This document shows, piece by piece, positions 4,830-54,697 of a DNA stretch of 64,000 nt. The notes beneath the pieces were generated by a model. It was given only the letters and a program-made list of their open reading frames with translations, was not told where the DNA came from and did no database searches. The translations under genes were made by a program, and so were the position numbers. How positions within the stretch are numbered: the first letter of the stretch is position 1; each line of letters starts with the position of its first letter. This DNA is from Aggregatilineales bacterium (GTDB lineage: Bacteria > Chloroflexota > Anaerolineae > Aggregatilineales > Phototrophicaceae), in the NCBI GenBank assembly GCA_044226855.1, contig JBGAGF010000013.1:95507-159506 (forward strand). Direction: 5' to 3'.

Positions 4830-5441
4830 ATGAAACGCAAGTGGTTCTTCAGCGCTTTAGGACTGCTTCTCATCGGTGGGATGTGTTGGATGCTGGTCGG
4901 CATCACTATCAACATTCCGCCCAAATCCCCGCTGCAAAAACTCAATGACGCCCGTGCCTTGTGGCAGGCGAAGGGCAGTCCGAATTATCAGATGGATATC
5001 GCCTTTGGCTCGTTTTCTTATATTGGTGGTTTTAGGCTAATCGTCCATGACAACAAAGTGACAGAAATTTCGGAATTTCCTCTGCTGTACCAAAACGTTA
5101 CTCCCACACCTTTAAGTGACTTGGAAGCGAAATCATTCCAAGCAACTTATTTTGCTCAGACGATTTCGCCTGATTTGAAGCAATATACAGTTGAAAGTTT
5201 ATTTGAAATTGCATCCTCAAAAGTGTCCAATGATGCGTCTCTAATTGCATTTTGCAGTGGTACGATTATGCCAACATTCCCCGATGTTCGCTTCAACTCG
5301 GAATATGGTTACATCGAATCTTATGACTTAGGAAATTGTCCCAAATGGGAAGTGGGTGGAGGGTTAATGTGCCCCATTATTTCAGACTGCAATATGGGTA
5401 TGCATGTTCGTCATTTCGAAATTTTGCCGCAGAGTGAGTGA
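4830..5441 (+). CDS. membrane-anchored hypothetical protein
   Basis: ORF 4794..5441. Internal Met MKRKWFF is followed by one TM helix, which suggests the true start. Confidence 0.45.
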   Translation: MKRKWFFSALGLLLIGGMCWMLVGITINIPPKSPLQKLNDARALWQAKGSPNYQMDIAFGSFSYIGGFRLIVHDNKVTEISEFPLLYQNVTPTPLSDLEAKSFQATYFAQTISPDLKQYTVESLFEIASSKVSNDASLIAFCSGTIMPTFPDVRFNSEYGYIESYDLGNCPKWEVGGGLMCPIISDCNMGMHVRHFEILPQSE

Positions 5442-5449
5442 TTTACAGC

Positions 5450-6243
5450 CTATCCCATCAGAACGGTGATCTGTTTGTAATAGATGCGGATGAACAGTGT
5501 ACCGAGTTGAATTAAGGCGTCGTTCTTGAGGGGAACCGGAACTTGAGCCTGTATGCGACGCCGGTCAACCATCGTGCCGTTAATCGAGTTCAAATCCATC
5601 AGGGTGAGTTTGCCGTTTTCCATCGAGAGCATGGCGTGCTGCCGTGAAACGCCGCATTCCTCGCCGTGAAAATTCTCCAGATTGATATCCATATTCATCC
5701 CGCGCCCGATAAACATCTTGCTGTTTTTGAGCTTAACCTTCAGCGTTTGCGGCAGATAGTCAGGGAAAATCAGCAGGAGTTCGTTGGCTTCCAGTGACGC
5801 CTCTTGCGTTTTAATGACGTCATCGCTGGCATTCATCAAGCTGACGATGGTGGTTTCTTGGGTAATCCGGCTGGAAAGTTTGGTCAGTGATGTAGCGTTC
5901 AAATCCGGCGTGGGCAGCGATTTGATCAGTAAACTCACCTGCTCGTCGTATTTCGCTTGGTCAGCAAAGTCAATCCGTTGCAGATGCCGGATCAGCAGCG
6001 GCAGCGGAGCAGGGCGGTATACAATCGGGATAATGAGCTTGTTCTTCGTATGAAATTCGCGCCATTCCACGCTGACGTTGTTGGAAGTCGAGGCCGTGGG
6101 TGACCAGACCAGCAGCAATACTGTCCTGCCGGAACACTGTGTAGATGGTCAACCCACACGTCAAATGCGTAGCGTTCCAAGCTGTGGCTCAGGTTGTTGA
6201 CGAACTCATCTTCAGCGGAAGAATGGCTAATGAAGACCAGCAT
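5450..6243 (-). pseudogene. TIR-FHA domain protein, disrupted (deletion plus frameshift between TIR beta-B and beta-C)
   Basis: ORF 5992..6243 encodes a TIR N-terminus MLVFISHSSAEDEF...FDVWVDH. Overlapping ORF 5450..6118 in another frame continues with TIR-like LLVWSPT...NNVSVEWREF...IIPIVYRP and ends with a canonical FHA domain (FIGRG...VSRQHA...NGTMV). The frames switch near 6118-6150. Confidence 0.6.
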
Positions 6244-6411
6244 TAATAAAACCTCTGACCGTGATCATGGTACGTCAAAAGTATAGCCATAAAAATATAA
6301 ACCAACCACTAATAGTGCTCAAGGAAGATCGACTTGAAAGCCGTTCATTTCTGGATTTTGATGGTGCCATCAATTATTCGTAACAAGGTTTACTTTGGGG
6401 TTGTCGGCAAA

Positions 6412-6800
6412 CCGTTTCCTAACCCTGCCGCAACCTCGTGCAGAAAATCCTCCCTCACAACGTTAGTGCCACCGGCTTGAAACAGTTACAAAATGTTCTT
6501 CCAAAATGTAACCCGCTACTTTCCTATATGTCGTATGCTCTTTGTAGGGAAAGATGGTTCTTGCCCCTGCAGCGCGCTAACGGGTTAGGCATCACGACTT
6601 TGTCCCACCGTATTTGTATTGGACTAAAGACTGGCTATTTGGCAAAGCTGGCGGCGGACACTCCCCTGCTACGTTTGCCAAAAAACCGGCGGATTCTCGG
6701 CTAAAGCACGTACAAAAGTCATCAAAATGGGCTAATTGCCGCCATCGCCGCCAAAAAATTTGCCAATTTCGCCACCGCCGTTGTCGATCACCTGCCCATT
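6412..6800 (+). repeat. dispersed non-coding repeat, copy A (31-nt conserved core at 6484..6514)
   Basis: Core AGTTACAAAATGTTCTTCCAAAATGTAACCC is identical to 42776..42806 and is the reverse complement (2 mismatches) of 24005..24035. Flanks are recognisably homologous to copies B and C. Confidence 0.7.
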
Positions 6801-6880
6801 TGGTGAGGTTCACAGCTTAACCATAATCGTGTATATAAATATGCACACGATCAGCCACTCACCAACAAAGGACGAACGAC

Positions 6881-7471
6881 ATGGGCAAGGGACGCTTAGA
6901 AGCCTTCAGTGATGGAGTCATCGCCATCATCATCACCATCATGGTGCTCGAACTCAAAGTTCCCCATGAGCCGACGTTTGCCGCGCTCGGCGAACTCATA
7001 CCGATTTTTCTCAGTTATGTGCTTAGCTTTGTCTATATTGGGATTTATTGGAACAACCATCACCACATGCTTCATCTGGCGCGCTCGGTCAATGGCCGTA
7101 TTCTTTGGGCAAATCTCCATCTATTGTTCTGGTTGTCGCTGGTGCCGTTCGTCACCGCGTGGATGGGCGAAAATCATCTCGCCACCGCTCCGGTCGCGCT
7201 TTACGGGGTGTTATTGGATCTTAGCGGTCTGGCCTACTATATTTTGAGCCGGACACTGATTGCTCATTTGGGGCACGACTCGGAACTGGCTGTCGCTGTC
7301 GGTAACGATCGCAAAGGGTTATTGTCGCTGGTCATTTATACGACAGGCATTATTGTGGCTTTTTTCAATACGTGGATTGCGTTTGCTTTGTACGTGGTCG
7401 TCGCGCTCATCTGGTTCGTTCCCGACTCGCGGATTGAGCGTTTGGTCATGAATAGAGATGGAAAAAGCTAA
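6881..7471 (+). CDS. TMEM175/DUF1211 family membrane protein (putative K+ channel-like)
   Basis: N-terminal RLEAFSDGVIAIIITIMVLEL signature and multiple TM helices. Confidence 0.65.
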   Translation: MGKGRLEAFSDGVIAIIITIMVLELKVPHEPTFAALGELIPIFLSYVLSFVYIGIYWNNHHHMLHLARSVNGRILWANLHLLFWLSLVPFVTAWMGENHLATAPVALYGVLLDLSGLAYYILSRTLIAHLGHDSELAVAVGNDRKGLLSLVIYTTGIIVAFFNTWIAFALYVVVALIWFVPDSRIERLVMNRDGKS

Positions 7472-22490: not shown

Positions 22491-22663
22491 GTATCCTCAC
22501 CATAACATTATTTTTAATGAATGCTTGCTTCTACAACCTCTTTTTACAACATTTTTGGATACCTTGCACGGTCTATTAAGCATTGTCTCAGCGTAGCTAT
22601 CCCGTCCGGTACAAGATGAGTAAATCATTTAAGCTAGAGTCACAGACTACGAAAGGAAATGAA

Positions 22664-23578
22664 ATGAAGCTCATACAGATGGTGTTTTGTGCAGTGGTGC
22701 TGACGCTGCTGACACTTAGTTCCGCGATGGCCCAAGATGAGCCAGATTATCCGCTTGACTTTCCGGTGCCTGAACTTACAGATGCCCAACTGAAAGAGGC
22801 CCGAGCGTGTGATTTGCAGGCCAAAGCTGCATCCACAGTTTCTAAACCAACTGCCTGTCAACTGGCGCAGCGGGCATTAGCGCTTGCCAAAACCAGAGGC
22901 GACAACAGCAAGCCTGATGACAAAGAACTCGAATTAATCAAGCAGATCACTGCACTCAATCCCGCCTTACTCTTACGTCTCGATATGATCGTTCAATACT
23001 TTGGGGCGATACCCCTGATTGCACCACCTGACTTTGCGACTAAACCCATCACCAAGTTGACGCTCAAATACACCTTCAGCGGTCTAGGAGCCAGTGTGGA
23101 TTATGACATTACCATCGCCAACGCTGATAAATCACCAGTGGTGGCTGGAAAAATTAAGACGGATAGTTCATTTGAGTCAGACAATACCAAGCCAACCGCT
23201 ACGCCTGTGCCTTTGCCCAAAACCGTCGATGTGGGTGTCGTGCAAGCCTTTGGCTCTGCTCTGTCGGATTTTCTGCCCATCCAAACCCAATTTAGCAGCA
23301 CACCGTGTTGGGACTATTACCCCGACTGGACTATCGAGCTAACTTTTGCTGATAAAACGACGCTTACATTGGTCACCAAAGACTCTAACGTCGTTGGAGT
23401 CGGTGGGCCATGGCAAACCGAGATTGACGGCAAATTCTATATGCAGTATTCGGCATCCCTACAGGTGGCCATTGGAGATCTGTTCAAAGCCCTTGATCTC
23501 AAATTTGGTGAGACGGCTGCAATGGGCTGCGGCGGCATCAATGACCCGCTTGACGACGCGTATCCGCCACACACATAA
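22664..23578 (+). CDS. secreted hypothetical protein
   Basis: Start MKLIQMVFCAVVLTLLTLSSAMA (signal peptide). No recognisable domain. Confidence 0.5.
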   Translation: MKLIQMVFCAVVLTLLTLSSAMAQDEPDYPLDFPVPELTDAQLKEARACDLQAKAASTVSKPTACQLAQRALALAKTRGDNSKPDDKELELIKQITALNPALLLRLDMIVQYFGAIPLIAPPDFATKPITKLTLKYTFSGLGASVDYDITIANADKSPVVAGKIKTDSSFESDNTKPTATPVPLPKTVDVGVVQAFGSALSDFLPIQTQFSSTPCWDYYPDWTIELTFADKTTLTLVTKDSNVVGVGGPWQTEIDGKFYMQYSASLQVAIGDLFKALDLKFGETAAMGCGGINDPLDDAYPPHT

Positions 23579-23849
23579 GATTTGTCATTTGGGATACGAA
23601 GAATTTGAAGACGCTGAATCAGGGTTACGGGAGAATCTTCGCGAAATTCTTCAGATTCTGCATTTTCACTGTGCAGTTTGGCTTTTGGCAGTTATCGATT
23701 GGCTTTCGCTCCGGACAACGAGATGATATGTCGACGTTGGCATCTGTTTAGGCATGTTGGGCTGCTTCTACGACATCGGTTGAAATGGTTGATGTGTCAG
23801 AAACGTCGTCAATGTTAGTATTCCATCGATACCGCGTTGGAGGTGTGCT

Positions 23850-24090
23850 CATAAAGCAAAATTGGCAGCAATTTCGGCAAATCTGGCATGCCAATTGTGG
23901 AAATTTGCAGCGATTGATGGTTGTTACAATGCGCTTTGGAGAATCGACCGCCGGCAAACACCTAAGAACATCATAGCTTATTTGAGGAAAGTGTGGGTTA
24001 CCTTTTGGAAGACCATTTTGTAACTCATTTGCAGCTTGGACACAAACTTAACAGCCGAGGTTGTTAGGAACAGGGTATATGGACGGTTTC
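23850..24090 (-). repeat. dispersed non-coding repeat, copy C (core at 24005..24035, minus orientation)
   Basis: Reverse complement matches the 31-nt core with 2 mismatches. Flanks share ACTTTCCT, CCTAAC..AACCTCG and TAACAACC.TCAATCG.TGCAAAT blocks with copies A and B. Outer limits are uncertain. Confidence 0.6.
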
Positions 24091-24239
24091 AAAACGGTTT
24101 GCCGACAAACCAGAATTAAACTTATTGTCGATAATCGTATAGAAGGTCGAACAAAATGAGCCGAATATCCCTCTTGTCAGTTCATGGAATGTCCTTCACA
24201 CTACAAAGAGAGATTCACGTCATGGGATTGAGGTAAGTC

Positions 24240-42284: not shown

Positions 42285-42632
42285 TCAGCCCCCTTTTTCA
42301 GTCGTTTTGACCGACTGGCTATCCAGTATTGCTAACCACGGACTGGCTTCTTTTCCCTGGTGCTGGCGCAGCATCTCGTGCAAGGTCTGATACAGCTTTT
42401 CCCAACTCCCATCCTCGCGCCAGATGCGAAAGTAGTAATACACACTCTGATAAGGTGGAAAGTCATGGGGCAGCATCCGCCACGAGCAACCACTGCGCAA
42501 CACATAACGCATGGCGTTGATTATGGCGCGCATCGAATATTTGCGCGGTCGTCCGCCACCCGGATTCGGAATCATGCCTTCCAAGATTGCCCATTCTTTA
42601 TCGCTCACATCACTTGGATACTGTTTTTTCAT
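42285..42632 (-). CDS. IS5 family transposase orfA (N-terminal part)
   Basis: WAILEGMIP...RPRKYSMRAIINAMRYVLRSGCSWRMLP is typical of the IS5/IS427 group N-terminus. Confidence 0.8.
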   Translation of the reverse strand: MKKQYPSDVSDKEWAILEGMIPNPGGGRPRKYSMRAIINAMRYVLRSGCSWRMLPHDFPPYQSVYYYFRIWREDGSWEKLYQTLHEMLRQHQGKEASPWLAILDSQSVKTTEKGG

Positions 42633-42696: not shown

Positions 42697-43500
42697 GTTA
42701 ACCCTTTACCAACCATCCATCAACCTGAAGAAGCGGCTGTCTCGCTCATTTACGTTAGAGCCAAACCCGCAAACGAGTTACAAAATGTTCTTCCAAAATG
42801 TAACCCCTTTGCGTATCAGTTCCCTTACAATAGACGATAGGATTGGCTGTAGGGATTTGCCGCTGGCAAATCCTCACACTGGCAAACCCCTGCTGAAACC
42901 AAATCCAACCGCATCTTAACAACCGTCAATCGTTGCAAATGTGATAAAAAAGACCGTTTCTCAACTGCAATATTTTCAACATTTGCCACACAGCTAGCGT
43001 AAATGTCACCACAAAACGTGTGTTGTTTCCGCCGCTTGTGCTGCTTTTGCCGCATATTCCGCATTAACTACGGTTCACTGCCCTTGATGCACTCAAGCAA
43101 TAGGCTGAGCTACTGACTGATTGACAACGACTATGCCGACATTTTCGACATCGAAAACACTTGGAATTTGTGGATCTTGCGGTTTTTGCAGTTTTTCGCA
43201 TCTCAAATGGTGAATGGTCGGGGGAATAGCCAATCACAAAAAGTAAAATATTCTGAATCTGAAGAATCCGACGAATTTTCTGAATCAAAAAGGAGTGAAG
43301 ATGAACCATGCTCCGCCGCCATCGCCGCCGCCAAGAAAGTTGTTGCCGCCACCGCCATCTCTTGTATTCGGCTAACGACTGAAGACTTATCATATGGCAA
43401 TCTTGGCGGCGGACACTCCAACAAGCTTTTGCCGCATTTCTAGCCGAACGTCCCGCCGAATTGCCGATAAATTTGCCAAAAACAGGGGGTGAAATTGTCA
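42697..43500 (+). repeat. dispersed non-coding repeat, copy B (core at 42776..42806), extended version
   Basis: Identical 31-nt core. Shares ACGTTAG.GCCA, TGTAGGGA, TAACAACCGTCAATCGTTGCAAAT, TGGCGGCGGACACTCC and GCCGCCATCGCCGCC blocks with copies A and C. Starts about 9 bp after the IS5 right end. Confidence 0.65.
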
Positions 43501-43563: not shown

Positions 43564-45117
<1,554 letters not shown>

Positions 45118-52214: not shown

Positions 52215-52384
52215 AGAGGGCGGCGTTTTTGATTCAGCGGATTATGCGCAATATGCAAAATTTGCACATTTATCCGCCGAAATGACTGGCGGGAAGCCGC
52301 CGAGAAGCCGCTGAATTGACACTTTCACGCCGCGGGAAGTTCGGCTGGCGCCGCTGAATTGGCGCAAATGCCGCGGATGACCCC
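52215..52384 (+). repeat. partial copy (3' module only) of the dispersed repeat, truncated by the IS3 element
   Basis: CAAAATTTGCACATTTATCCGCC and GAATTGGCGCAAATGCCGCGG resemble the 3' blocks of copies A and B. No 31-nt core. Confidence 0.35.
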
Positions 52385-52489
52385 TGTATGTCCGCCGCTG
52401 CACAGTTGGCAGTGCTGTGGACTTGCCCCGTTTAAGTGGAGAGTGTGAAATTGCACAGGTACACTTAAATAAGGAGCAAGGAGAAAAGC

Positions 52490-52777
52490 ATGAGCAGACA
52501 CCGTAAGCAGCAAACCGAGGCCTTCAAAGCGGAAGCAGTAGCATTAGTGAAGGCGAGTGGAAAAGGGGTGCCGGAGATTGCGGAAGAGTTGGGGATTAAT
52601 GCGCGGACGCTGTACACATGGGTAGCGAGTGACAAGTCCAGTTCAGCCGTGACAGATGAAGGAAACGGACGGGATTTGGAAGCAGAAAACCGACGGCTGC
52701 GGCGGGAACTGGAGATCATGCGGCAGGAGCGGGACATCCTAAAAAAAGCTATGAGCGTGTTCGCGAAGGGGTCATGA
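52490..52777 (+). CDS. IS3 family transposase OrfA (HTH)
   Basis: EAFKAEAVALV...GVPEIAEELGINARTLYTWV and a leucine-zipper-like end. A7G slippery site at 52741..52748. Confidence 0.8.
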   Translation: MSRHRKQQTEAFKAEAVALVKASGKGVPEIAEELGINARTLYTWVASDKSSSAVTDEGNGRDLEAENRRLRRELEIMRQERDILKKAMSVFAKGS

Positions 52778-52818
52778 TGCGCTACCAGTTCATCGCTGAA
52801 CACGCCTAGGAGTATCCA

Positions 52819-53640
52819 GTGCAGCGACAATGTCAGGTGTTGGAAGTGGCTGCAAGCGGCTACTATGCCTGGTGCAAGCGCCAACCGAGTGGGCGACAGC
52901 AAGCGGATGCGGCCTTGGTGGCGGAAATCCAGAGAATTTACCAGCAAAACCGGGGAACGTATGGCAGTCCACGGGTGCATGCCGAACTACGAAAACGGGG
53001 ACACCGCTGCAGTCGCAAACGGGTCGCCCGCCTGATGCGCCAAAGCCATCTGCGCTCGGTGCGTCAAGCCAGGCGACGGCAGCTCACGACCGATTCTCGC
53101 CATCCTTATCCCGTTGCCGCCAATGTCCTCAACCGAGACTTTCAAGCTCAACGTCCCAACCAGAAGTGGGTAGCGGATATCACCTTCATCGCCACGCAGG
53201 CGGGATGGTTGTATCTGGCCGTGGTCTTGGATCTCTTCTCACGCCGCGTTGTCGGCTGGGCGATGAGTGCTCGTTGTGATGCCACTCTGGTTCAGCATGC
53301 CCTCCAGATGGCCCTCTCCCAGCGCCAACCTACTGGCGCTTTACTACACCACTCCGATCGCGGCAGTCAGTACGCCGCTCTCGCCTACCAAGCCCTGCTG
53401 GCTCAGCACCACATCATCGTCAGCATGAGCCGCACCGCCAACTGTTACGACAACGCCGTCATCGAGAGCTTCTTTCGCACCCTCAAAGCTGAGTGCATTG
53501 ACCTACATCTCTTTCACTCACATGCTTATGCCCGAACCGTTATCTTTGAGTACTTGGAGGTCTATTACAACCGTCAACGCCTACATTCCACCCTTGGCTA
53601 TTGCACACCTGCTGCTTTTGAGGCAGCCTACCTTTTATGA
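52819..53640 (+). CDS. IS3 family transposase OrfB (DDE integrase core); an in-frame TAG lies between the frameshift site and the conserved domain
   Basis: ...YGSPRVHAEL...DRGSQYAA...YDNAVIESFFRTLKAE integrase core. In the -1 frame after the slippery site, TAG at 52807..52809 interrupts the conserved FIAEHA-x-EYPV segment. Confidence 0.7.
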   Translation: MQRQCQVLEVAASGYYAWCKRQPSGRQQADAALVAEIQRIYQQNRGTYGSPRVHAELRKRGHRCSRKRVARLMRQSHLRSVRQARRRQLTTDSRHPYPVAANVLNRDFQAQRPNQKWVADITFIATQAGWLYLAVVLDLFSRRVVGWAMSARCDATLVQHALQMALSQRQPTGALLHHSDRGSQYAALAYQALLAQHHIIVSMSRTANCYDNAVIESFFRTLKAECIDLHLFHSHAYARTVIFEYLEVYYNRQRLHSTLGYCTPAAFEAAYLL

Positions 53641-53780
53641 ATCTCTTGTCTCTCCACAATATCAGGTCAAGTCCAGCTGTCGCAGCGGATGTGAGGGAGT
53701 GAACCGCCGAAAATGCAAAAGCAAAAACAGTTGAACCGCAAAGACGCAGAGAAAGAGGAGAAAAAGATAAAATCATCATA

Positions 53781-54697
53781 GGAATATGGTAGTGGTTGCA
53801 AAGTAAGTGATGGTGGATAAAGATCTGCCACATGATCGAAGAGACTACCAAATACTCGTGTCGATCATGCGGCAGTGAGCCTATTATACGCAACGGGCAC
53901 AATAAATGCGGGAGTCCGCAGTACAAGTGCAAAGCGTGTGGTGCCTGCCGCGTGTTGACACCGAAAATCAAATATACGCAGGAACAGAAAGTCACCATTT
54001 TGCGTGCTTACCGGGAACGGATCAGTTTACGCGGCTTACAGCGCGTGTTCGGTGTATGGCGCACTACCGTCTTGCGCTGGTTAAAGGCGTGGGTGGCATC
54101 CCTACCATCATTGCCCGAAACATTGCTTCCGGTTCAAGCGACCGATGTGCTGGAACTGGATGAACTGGTGAGTTTTGTGTCCGAGAAGTTCTTCAAACGC
54201 TGGTTGTGGCTGGCCATGTGTCGTCGAACGCGCCAGATTGTGGCTTATGCCATCGATGATCGCTCCGAAACCACGGCGCAGAAGCTCTGGGAAATGCTTC
54301 CCGACAGCTATCGAAGTTGTCCCATGTACACAGATGAGTACGATGTTTATCCACGTATTATCCCACTTGAGCAGCATCGGGCGGCCCCCAAAGAGGCACA
54401 TCAGACCAATCATCAAGAGCGTTGGAACAATACGCTCCGTCAGTGGGTCGGGCGATACACTCGCAAGTCCTTATCTTTTTCCAAGGAGGATCTGTACCAT
54501 TCTCTCGTCACTCATTGGTTCATCCTCGAATACAATCTTCGTATTCGATCATCACTTACCTTGTGACCACTACCAGGAATATGGTGGTGGTCATTTGGTA
54601 AGTGATGATTGAACCCTCACCCCTAGCCCCTCTCCCTCAAGGCGAGGGGAACTAAACAAGTTATCACTTACTATGCAACCACTACTAGGAATATTGT
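53781..54697 (+). mobile_element. IS1 family insertion sequence (single fused InsAB-type ORF)
   Basis: Inverted repeats with core TAGTGGTTGCA(A/T)AGTAAGTGAT at 53781..53815 and, reverse complement, 54661..54697. An extra direct partial copy of the left end lies at about 54573..54608. Confidence 0.6.
53832..54566 (+). CDS. IS1 family transposase (InsA zinc-finger/HTH fused to InsB DDE domain)
   Basis: N-terminal CRSCGS...CKACGA zinc finger. C-terminal ...YTDEYDVY...ERWNNTLRQWVGRYTRKSLSFSKE matches the IS1 InsB signature. Confidence 0.8.
   Translation: MIEETTKYSCRSCGSEPIIRNGHNKCGSPQYKCKACGACRVLTPKIKYTQEQKVTILRAYRERISLRGLQRVFGVWRTTVLRWLKAWVASLPSLPETLLPVQATDVLELDELVSFVSEKFFKRWLWLAMCRRTRQIVAYAIDDRSETTAQKLWEMLPDSYRSCPMYTDEYDVYPRIIPLEQHRAAPKEAHQTNHQERWNNTLRQWVGRYTRKSLSFSKEDLYHSLVTHWFILEYNLRIRSSLTL

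Follow-up and report, generated by a model that had tools for sequence, protein, structure and literature searches.

What kind of element keeps some 30 nt almost letter for letter at scattered intergenic sites, in surroundings that have diverged? The question arises from a 64,000-nt stretch of Aggregatilineales bacterium DNA (assembly GCA_044226855.1, contig JBGAGF010000013.1, positions 95,507 to 159,506, forward strand; hereafter the window), in which an original prediction, made from the letters alone, had pointed out three copies of a dispersed repeat and had proposed either the control site of a small RNA (sRNA) gene family or something akin to a MITE (a miniature transposable element with inverted repeats). 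The repeat was then described as a 31-nt core inside an evenly diverged 0.4-kb element. The constraint on the core is real, but each copy consists instead of a head of about 180 bp, nearly free of indels, and of a body that is not conserved. Judged from its sequence, the element appears to be a dispersed mosaic non-coding repeat of an unusual kind, in which a deeply conserved promoter head would precede an unconserved transcript. The explanation that we favour, and to which we give an even chance, is an activator-dependent promoter cassette driving mostly non-coding transcripts; the core would then most likely be one control site shared by many small RNAs.

Extent of the family

The 31-mer AGTTACAAAATGTTCTTCCAAAATGTAACCC occurs exactly, on the plus strand, at the two sites first reported (copies A and B, Table 1). 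The third copy (C) does lie on the minus strand with two mismatches, at 23995-24025 and not at the 24005-24035 initially given. One hundred dinucleotide shuffles yielded zero matches to the 31-mer, and each 16-nt half of the core is found in the window at those three sites only. Homology around the cores had been noticed as well, and its extent proves greater than described: the three regions align over several hundred bases, and a profile hidden Markov model (HMM) derived from 93 copies matches the window at 6368-6775 (E = 3e-50), 24143-23536 (E = 5e-52) and 42697-43389 (E = 2e-69). All three copies are situated between open reading frames (ORFs), in orientations that differ relative to their neighbours, as had been seen at the outset.

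A motif search in relatives, which had been suggested as a check, gave many further copies, all in one fixed context. Scanning one genome per bacterial species with the pattern GTTACAAAATGNTCTTCCAAAANGTAAC returned at least 99 stretches; the genome matches listed come from six assemblies only, each with 2 to 26 listed copies and each carrying the name Aggregatilineales, Anaerolineae or Anaerolineaceae bacterium. A scan of metagenome contigs that allowed any letter at the nine central bases returned at least 120 stretches, mostly on Ga... and APMI01 contigs, which we took as soil. The family counts used below (3 in the window, 99 in genomes and 120 in metagenomes) are thus lower bounds, limited to the matches listed. 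Among these, 222 of 223 share the head context, the lone exception being a chance match with an unrelated centre.

The family is undescribed: it has no Rfam family, and no paper among the literature searched reports it. Rfam recognized only a transfer RNA (tRNA) in the window, gave chance-level hits for copy A at E<=10, and had no match inside any element at 18 loci. A full-text literature search for parts of the core retrieved unrelated primer sequences only, a keyword search retrieved nothing relevant, and an exact-protein look-up of two genes flanking copies found no match. The head and two bodies had no match in phage, plasmid and IMG/VR viral collections. Although soils, sludge and sediments hold many Aggregatilineales and Anaerolineae, the genetics of these bacteria is almost unstudied; the core could serve as a marker sequence for tracking the lineage in metagenomes.

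Anatomy of the element

Head coordinates are counted here from the first G of a 28-mer within the core. An ungapped profile, an alignment of 100 sequences (alignment A2) and the profile HMM agree on a head running from about -113 to +65. Its left boundary is sharp, at TATTAT or TATTCG, and upstream of this boundary there is no conservation. Then come GGTTTA, GGTTTG-TCGG-CAAACC or a variant of it, and two CAACC motifs, which place five GGTTT/CAACC motifs at about -103, -92, -81, -70 and -59, in an 11-bp phase. These are followed by CTTAACAA, GCTCCCTCAAAATGGTTAGCGCCAAC and the core and, downstream of it, by 19-20 variable nucleotides, a hexamer at +49 to +54 and aTAGGg at about +60. The blocks first picked out around the window cores recur across the family: CCTAAC..AACC as the phased CAACC repeats, ACGTTAG.GCCA as GGTTAGCGCCAAC, TGTAGGGA as a GTAG-tagged hairpin in the body, and TAACAACC.TCAATCG.TGCAAAT as a CTTAACA...CAATCGTTGCAAATG module.

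In the core, 26 of 30 consecutive positions are invariant in the 222 copies listed, and variation is confined to +11 (T/G), +14, +15 and +22 (T/G). The dyad GTTACA-N16-TGTAAC, noted early on, is present, together with a direct repeat, TTACAAAATGT / TTCCAAAATGT, 13 nt apart. Compensatory changes had been named as something to look for, and in the head there are none: on 100 heads, RNAalifold found zero covarying pairs and returned only the invariant GTTAC/GTAAC stem with a 2-bp inner helix (-2.5 kcal/mol). Positions -110 to -41 fold with a mean energy of only -5.8 kcal/mol. A structured RNA in the head finds no support in this result and, because there is no RNA structure beyond the dyad and folding is weak, the head presumably acts as DNA and not as RNA.

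The body measures about 0.25-0.6 kb; homology extends to about +420 and often beyond, with large indels. Its first module is an (A/G)TAGG tag with a GC-rich hairpin, which unrelated sequences form at the same place (for instance the families GGGTTTGCCGCTGGCAAACCC, GGGGCGCAAGGCTTTGCGCCC and CTCCCTTGCCC...GGGAAAGGG). Compared with shuffles, the hairpin segment has a median z of -1.2, with z < -2 in 29% of copies versus 5% in a far-downstream control. What defines REP sequences (repetitive extragenic palindromes) is a GTAG (or CGTC) tag beside a GC-rich imperfect palindrome of 20-40 bp (PMC3733652), and such a tag-palindrome unit is found in the first body module only, as in GTAGGGGCGGGAT-TCAT-CCCGACC and GTAGGGATTTGCC-GCT-GGCAAATCC. 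After the hairpin come CGCACCTTAACA and then a shuffled set of modules, namely CAATCGTTGCAAATGTGACAAAAA, runs of CAACAGCAT, GCCGCTTTTGC and GACGACAAC, TGGCA/TGCCA palindromes, and GCGCTTCAGCGC...TCAGGCGGAGGCTTGAGCCTCTGA; many have a 9-nt period, and hairpin and module units are also found outside the element. About 15 copies have a second type of body (type II), made of repeated ATTTCAGCGG units. In many copies the element ends in a tail, GAATCTGMMGAATTTGCAGAAT...TTCGGCA..GCTCCCTCAAATCCGCCG...TTTGAATCA, with invariant G, A and T at an exact 9-nt period, and 8 of 21 canonical tails run directly into an AAAA-hairpin-TTTT module. The sequence GCTCCCTCAAA is repeated in both head and tail. One family of hairpin modules, seen in the bodies of loci L015, L037, L060 and L075 between +70 and +140, carries runs like GGGGAAAGGGTTGGGGTTAGGGG with at least four G-tracts and could form a G-quadruplex.

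The element is non-coding. One plus-strand frame, reading ...KELQNVLPKCNP, is open through the core in most copies, and many body modules have a periodicity of 3 or 9 nt, as would suit a family of small proteins or peptide precursors, with either a leader MVSAN..KELQNVLPKCNP that passes through the core into a variable peptide or a translated 'AAIAAKK'/'GGDGG' block. We consider this extremely improbable. The ATG of the core frame exists in just 66 of 176 copies, and the frame ends after 10 to 191 codons. Over 10 consecutive 'codons' there is zero synonymous variation in the 222 copies listed, and at the four variable positions the variants are mostly non-synonymous (GTT>GGT, TGT>GGT and CTT>CGC; CTT>CTA is synonymous). 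Since the start codon is missing in most copies and synonymous variation is absent, a leader peptide running through the core was rejected. Six-frame ORF clustering of 93 copies gave blocks shared merely at the DNA level, open in several frames and on both strands, and the spacing of blocks has no bias to multiples of 3. That the 'AAIAAKK' block has no conserved reading frame, and that the element is non-coding, had been rightly seen; frames and strands differ between copies, and the reverse-strand 'GGDGG' reading of the block, also rejected, corresponds to a 19-codon frame in copy A and to the C-terminus of a real protein in copy C.

A candidate promoter and its rivals

At a fixed 20 nt past the core, the hexamer reads TAnnnT in all 95 genome-plus-window copies and in 112 of 117 independent metagenome copies (207 of 212 among the matches listed). 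The five exceptions include 1-nt shifts (GATAAT, CATAAT) and TGTGAT, and the commonest forms in genomes and window are TATGAT, TACACT, TACAAT and TATCAT. Only positions 1, 2 and 6 are fixed (T-12, A-11 and T-7), a hierarchy that is the established pattern of -10 elements of the sigma-70 type. In 83 of 84 copies ATAGG follows the core at 34-35 nt, and later anchor blocks are spaced anywhere between 8 and 468 nt. The head has no -35 box, the corresponding location reading ACCCAT. As an in-genome reference for a normal promoter and terminator we took tRNA-Asn (2768-2840; region 2728-2875), which has a TTGACA-17-TAACAT promoter and an intrinsic terminator with a GC hairpin and a T-run; because a canonical promoter is used there, the missing -35 box seems specific to the head. 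Relative to the predicted start, the core spans about -61 to -32, the region bound by activators that stand in for a -35 box.

These features support the view, already put forward in the original prediction, that the core is a site constrained at the DNA level and would belong to a promoter; the sRNA gene family of the same proposal would be a further step. The part downstream of the head looks like a transcription unit in its own right, mostly non-coding. Among the attributes of an sRNA gene, the element appears to have a promoter of its own, as far as sequence evidence goes. Two other promoter readings were rejected. TGTAAC-N17-CGAA resembles the consensus of promoters of the extracytoplasmic function (ECF) type, but CGA is not conserved and TAnnnT is. 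A second promoter at the left-end TATTAT is contradicted by the alternation of this motif with TATTCG and by the lack of a -35 box.

We propose that the head of about 180 bp would work as a double-stranded DNA promoter region. RNA polymerase with a housekeeping-type sigma factor would use the TAnnnT hexamer as its -10 element, while the 30-bp core would substitute for the -35 box, presumably bound by one dedicated factor, and the five phased GGTTT/CAACC motifs would add a curved or cooperatively bound platform upstream. Transcription would start about 7 nt past the hexamer, at the (A/G)TAGG motif, and enter the body through a stable, protective GTAG-tagged GC hairpin followed by the shuffled short modules; in many copies the transcript would end with the conserved tail, sometimes followed by the terminator made of an A-run, a hairpin and a T-run. 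The products would be mostly non-coding RNAs of about 0.25-0.6 kb, with a minority of heads driving ordinary genes. Such a system could offer an experimental entry point, with one site, probably one factor and many targets, and possibly a portable promoter for a phylum that has no genetic tools.

The genomic context is polar. ORFs were called crudely, by taking the longest ones of 110 aa or more. On these calls, the tail-side gene faces the element 60 times and faces away from it 31 times (z ~3, p ~0.002), and the head-side gene has no orientation bias (42 versus 45). Were repeats simply tolerated between convergent genes (PMC3049150), both sides would be affected; a bias on one side fits an outward-firing promoter, and also selection against read-out into downstream genes. 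Co-oriented downstream genes have no common functional theme. Some of them nevertheless seem clearly to be served by the head, such as the TMEM175-like gene after copy A and a capsid fusion gene at an orthologous locus (L028, 5344-7543, and L086). There, a leader of about 300 nt, conserved between two species, separates the head from a 610-aa gene; the C-terminal part of its product matches Pfam Phage_capsid, and the N-terminus is prohead-protease-like by eye only. Rfam does not recognize the leader itself, which could be a regulatory RNA in its own right.

Some copies are vertically inherited. Seven pairs of copies have homologous proteins on both flanks, and many more on one flank, the flanking proteins being 88-95% identical; syntenic copies span 2-4 species, and every syntenic locus carries the element. 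In one group of four species, good alignments are obtained for the downstream gene with its terminator and the head stays conserved, but the bodies are unalignable. Across 14 syntenic pairs, head identity (core excluded) is 67-82%, where non-orthologous copies have 69%; body identity is 26-73% and mostly near the random level, for which the baseline is about 50%, three pairs reaching 67-73%. From these identities, heads appear to be held at the family consensus and bodies mostly to drift. The persistence of family-typical modules may possibly be due to constraint, gene conversion or turnover. The pattern of constraint would then be inverted: a promoter module is long kept at many loci and the sequence it drives is free to change, whereas ordinary sRNA genes conserve the RNA. 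If the transcripts have no function, the family would be a case study of a selfish or architectural promoter-bearing repeat that persists by vertical inheritance.

Several observations weigh against a promoter cassette producing small RNAs. Transcription factor sites are usually far less strict than a core invariant at 26 of 30 positions, and no candidate regulator gene recurs beside copies in 99 loci. A sequence-specific function of the RNA is doubtful because bodies are not conserved between syntenic copies. In type II bodies the covariation term is about zero; the tail, likewise, has no consistent pairing and its apparent stems lack covariation. For type II body and tail together, alignments A3 and A4 give weak covariation or none, and an apparent TGCCGAA/TTCGGCA stem does not covary. 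A crude terminator scan found sites downstream to be no commoner than in upstream control regions. Finally, the neighbour bias inherits the crudeness of the ORF calls, and an excess between convergent genes is general among dispersed repeats (PMC3049150).

Three rival explanations were considered for the conserved head, beside the peptide family discussed above. The element could be a mosaic extragenic repeat acting at the DNA level, of the kind of bacterial interspersed mosaic elements (BIMEs) or RIP elements, with a head that docks a nucleoid or architectural protein (a bending protein, gyrase or a domain-boundary factor). TAnnnT would then be part of the docking site, and the body an accumulation of REP-like hairpins and minisatellite modules. 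This we hold to be unlikely, though worth keeping in mind. It would explain why the body is built of GTAG-tagged hairpins and short modules that are also found elsewhere, the 11-bp phase of the head motifs, a 9-nt periodicity of modules and tail that follows no coding or pairing logic, the divergence of bodies between syntenic copies, and an extragenic location with an excess beside gene 3' ends, as for REPs (PMC3733652). It accounts poorly for a hexamer in which only T, A and T are invariant at a fixed spacing, which is a -10 signature, for an orientation bias restricted to the tail side, and for heads that precede real genes with long conserved leaders; known BIMEs, moreover, have no conserved 180-bp unit. 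An old non-autonomous mobile element with an outward promoter (a MITE, or a derivative of an element mobilized by IS200/IS605 or RAYT) is distinctly unlikely. A transposase or recombinase with its gene elsewhere would recognize the core, and dependence on that enzyme would keep the core invariant. The high copy number, the sharp boundary at TATTAT and the ability of the core to fold into a hairpin (6-bp stem, 16-nt loop) agree with this, and GTAG-tagged hairpins are substrates of RAYT transposases (PMC3479197, PMC3733652). The core can also be read as an imperfect 11-6-11 recombinase-like site, GTTACAAAATG-TTCTTC-CAAAATGTAAC, with arms that agree at just 8 of 11 positions; the single terminus site, cassette array or adjacent integrase expected of a dif- or attC-like tyrosine-recombinase site is not seen, the motif standing in dozens of dispersed copies in both orientations with no recurrent integrase. 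At two loci (L023, ~5290-5500, and L033, ~830-1050), the C-terminus of an IS110-family transposase, identified by eye, lies on the opposite strand right after the head, inserted at the GTAG-tagged hairpin, and some IS110-family elements target REP sequences. What mobility predicts about the ends and the copies is, on the other hand, missing. A repeat search found no terminal inverted repeats between the element ends of the three window copies, the ends of the family consensus (TATTAT... and ...TTTGAATCA) are unrelated, and each element has a single core, hence no two matching ends. None of the copies compared are near-identical: best matches, about 40% of them from the same genome and 60% from another, have identities of 68-94% (70-85% in most cases) over 105-703 nt and usually less than 350 nt. 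In 99 loci, no transposase, integrase or other protein family recurs beside copies except orthologous neighbours, and, within the 8-kb loci covered, no RAYT-like gene does so. With copies syntenic in 2-4 species and no match in phage, plasmid or viral collections, the MITE-like alternative of the original prediction found no support, and we rejected a MITE on its lack of terminal inverted repeats, close copies and a recurrent transposase.

In the third rival, the core would be invariant through pairing with a trans-acting nucleic acid, for instance the guide of a nuclease-dead RNA-guided protein switching all heads. Invariance at 26 of 30 positions across at least seven species and metagenomes, a core length typical of guide-target duplexes, and a rest of the head that is degenerate (about 70% identity) would suit such pairing. 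We judge it very unlikely, as there is no guide-like second context (222 of 223 matches are heads, and the window holds no extra half-matches), genes of the Cas, TnpB or IscB kind do not recur in the vicinity of copies, and the dyad and the direct repeat resemble protein half-sites. Returning to the promoter cassette, a bolder version of it, to which we give a slim chance, is that the heads form one giant regulon, with dozens to hundreds of promoters per genome under a single factor that recognizes the 30-bp site, possibly through guide-RNA pairing; what would count about the freely varying transcripts is then no conserved sequence, but either that transcription takes place or that they supply a pool of diversifying RNA. 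If true, this pool might be used for antisense control of convergent genes, for insulation of chromosome domains or for self-recognition, and it would be a bacterial genome-wide non-coding transcription system with no described counterpart.

How does the element compare with known systems? The Qrr and the RsmX/Y/Z sRNAs share one upstream site each (for RsmX/Y/Z the GacA box, TGTAAG-N6-CTTACA) and have 2-7 copies with conserved structured bodies. The likeness lies in the shared upstream site, in putatively activator-dependent promoters with no good -35 box, and in TGTAAC, which resembles TGTAAG; in contrast, the element has dozens or more copies per genome, unconserved bodies, everted half-sites 16 bp apart and an invariant 30-mer. 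BOX elements of Streptococcus pneumoniae, made of boxA, a variable boxB array and boxC, have a function that is still unclear (PMC3049150). They too are modular non-coding repeats scattered between genes, in which a variable middle is framed by conserved modules at the ends; they exist in about 100 or more copies, are over-represented by convergent genes and can affect or join the transcription of neighbours (PMC3049150). However, BOX stays under 200-300 bp, folds as a whole and has no 180-bp promoter head, invariant 30-mer or fixed -10 hexamer; its middle is a tandem array of one module, whereas that of the element is a mosaic of many module types, and the two have no sequence similarity. With REPs and BIMEs the element has in common the (A/G)TAGG tag beside a GC-rich imperfect palindrome of REP size, the coexistence of several hairpin families, the extragenic location, the preference for gene 3' ends and the mosaic organization (PMC3733652, PMC3479197). 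But REPs are 20-40 bp and BIMEs about 100 bp long, neither with a long conserved unique head or a promoter signature, and REP copies within a genome are typically far more alike than copies of the element. A pure REP or BIME was rejected because the conserved part is dominated by a unique, non-palindromic and unstructured 180-bp head. Correia elements of Neisseria (CREE/NEMIS) are also abundant and intergenic, can create promoters, and are co-transcribed or processed (PMC3049150, PMC10969869); they are MITEs some 100-150 bp long that duplicate a TA target, and they differ from the element in having terminal inverted repeats and many near-identical copies.

Features of the window and minor observations

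The features of the three window copies, and of a head-less remnant of a type II body, are collected in Table 1.

Table 1. Positions of element parts and adjoining features in the window (IS, insertion sequence)
Feature	Position	Strand	Remarks
Copy A head	6372-6550	+	-113 to +65 from 28-mer first G at 6485; alignment A2, HMM
Copy A head motifs	6387-6392 (GGTTTA), 6408-6413 (CAAACC), 6431-6435 (CAACC), 6450-6456 (CTCCCTC), 6462-6466 (GTTAG)	+	
Copy A invariant core AGTTACAAAATGTTCTTCCAAAATGTAACCC	6484-6514	+	
Copy A -10-like hexamer TATGCT	6534-6539	+	20 nt past GTAACC; predicted start near 6546-6549
Copy A body	6541-6797	+	HMM envelope; TGGCGGCGGACAC and GCCGCCATCGCCGCC modules; canonical tail absent
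Copy A GTAG-tagged hairpin TTGTAGGG...CCCCTGCA	6542-6572	+	Fold -20.3 kcal/mol
TMEM175-like gene	6881-7471	+	Downstream of copy A, same orientation; Pfam
Copy B head	42697-42842	+	Left ~35 nt absent; HMM match begins at model position 51
IS4/IS5-type (DUF4096) ORF	42285-42632	-	Putative transposase; adjoins copy B head; Pfam
Copy B invariant core	42776-42806	+	
Copy B -10-like hexamer TACAAT	42826-42831	+	ATAGG then at 42837-42841; predicted start near 42838-42841
Copy B body	42833-43396	+	Convergent with malQ (43564-45117, -)
Copy B GTAG hairpin GGATTTGCC-GCT-GGCAAATCC	42848-42878	+	
Copy B CATCTTAACA	42912-42921	+	
Copy B 9-nt-periodic tail array	43255-43287	+	Ends CTGAATCA, then GCCGCCATCGCCGCC block
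Copy C head	23959-24137	-	HMM, alignment
Copy C core	23995-24025	-	T>G at +11 and +22 (two of the four family-variable positions)
Copy C -10-like hexamer TATGAT	23970-23975	-	Predicted start near 23961-23964
Copy C body	23536-23968	-	End meets 3' end of convergent ORF 22583-23578 (+)
Copy C CATTGTAACA	23922-23931	-	
Copy C tail array GAATCTGAAGAAT	23646-23658	-	
Type II body remnant, 3' part	52234-52458	-	Head-less; repeated ATTTCAGCGG units; nhmmer E = 8e-07; 2.9e-10 versus L042 body
Type II body remnant, 5' part	53611-53760	-	HMM match 53611-53720
IS3-family insertion between remnant parts	orfA from ~52489 (by eye); orfB with rve domain 52819-53640	+	
IS1-family transposase gene	53832-54566	+	Abuts type II remnant

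The three full copies (6485, 24024 and 42777) are 17.5 and 18.8 kb apart and alternate in orientation, possibly by chance. The loss of the left end of the copy B head beside the DUF4096 ORF suggests a truncation by IS insertion, and the surroundings of the type II remnant (52460-54570) form an IS-rich patch. In copy A, 21 nt at 6528-6548, the region of the hexamer and of the predicted start, are 76% complementary to 6862-6882, which holds the ribosome-binding site and start codon of the TMEM175-like gene; this may be a chance match.

Outside the window, a 3-kb metagenome contig (L196, 1415-1917) has two convergent heads, the cores being separated by some 470 nt; if both heads fired, the two transcripts would be complementary throughout. 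Another locus (L099, 484-785, minus strand) has a 65-bit Rfam match to 5_ureB_sRNA, about 1.3 kb past the element end and unrelated to it. Other short repeats, among them CAGTACTCGGCACTCAGAACTCA and CTCTGCGTCTTTGCGGTTCAA, recur beside heads and elsewhere (for instance upstream in L043, L014, L034 and L064, and upstream in L047, L024 and L053), and the carrier genomes seem rich in several small intergenic repeat families.

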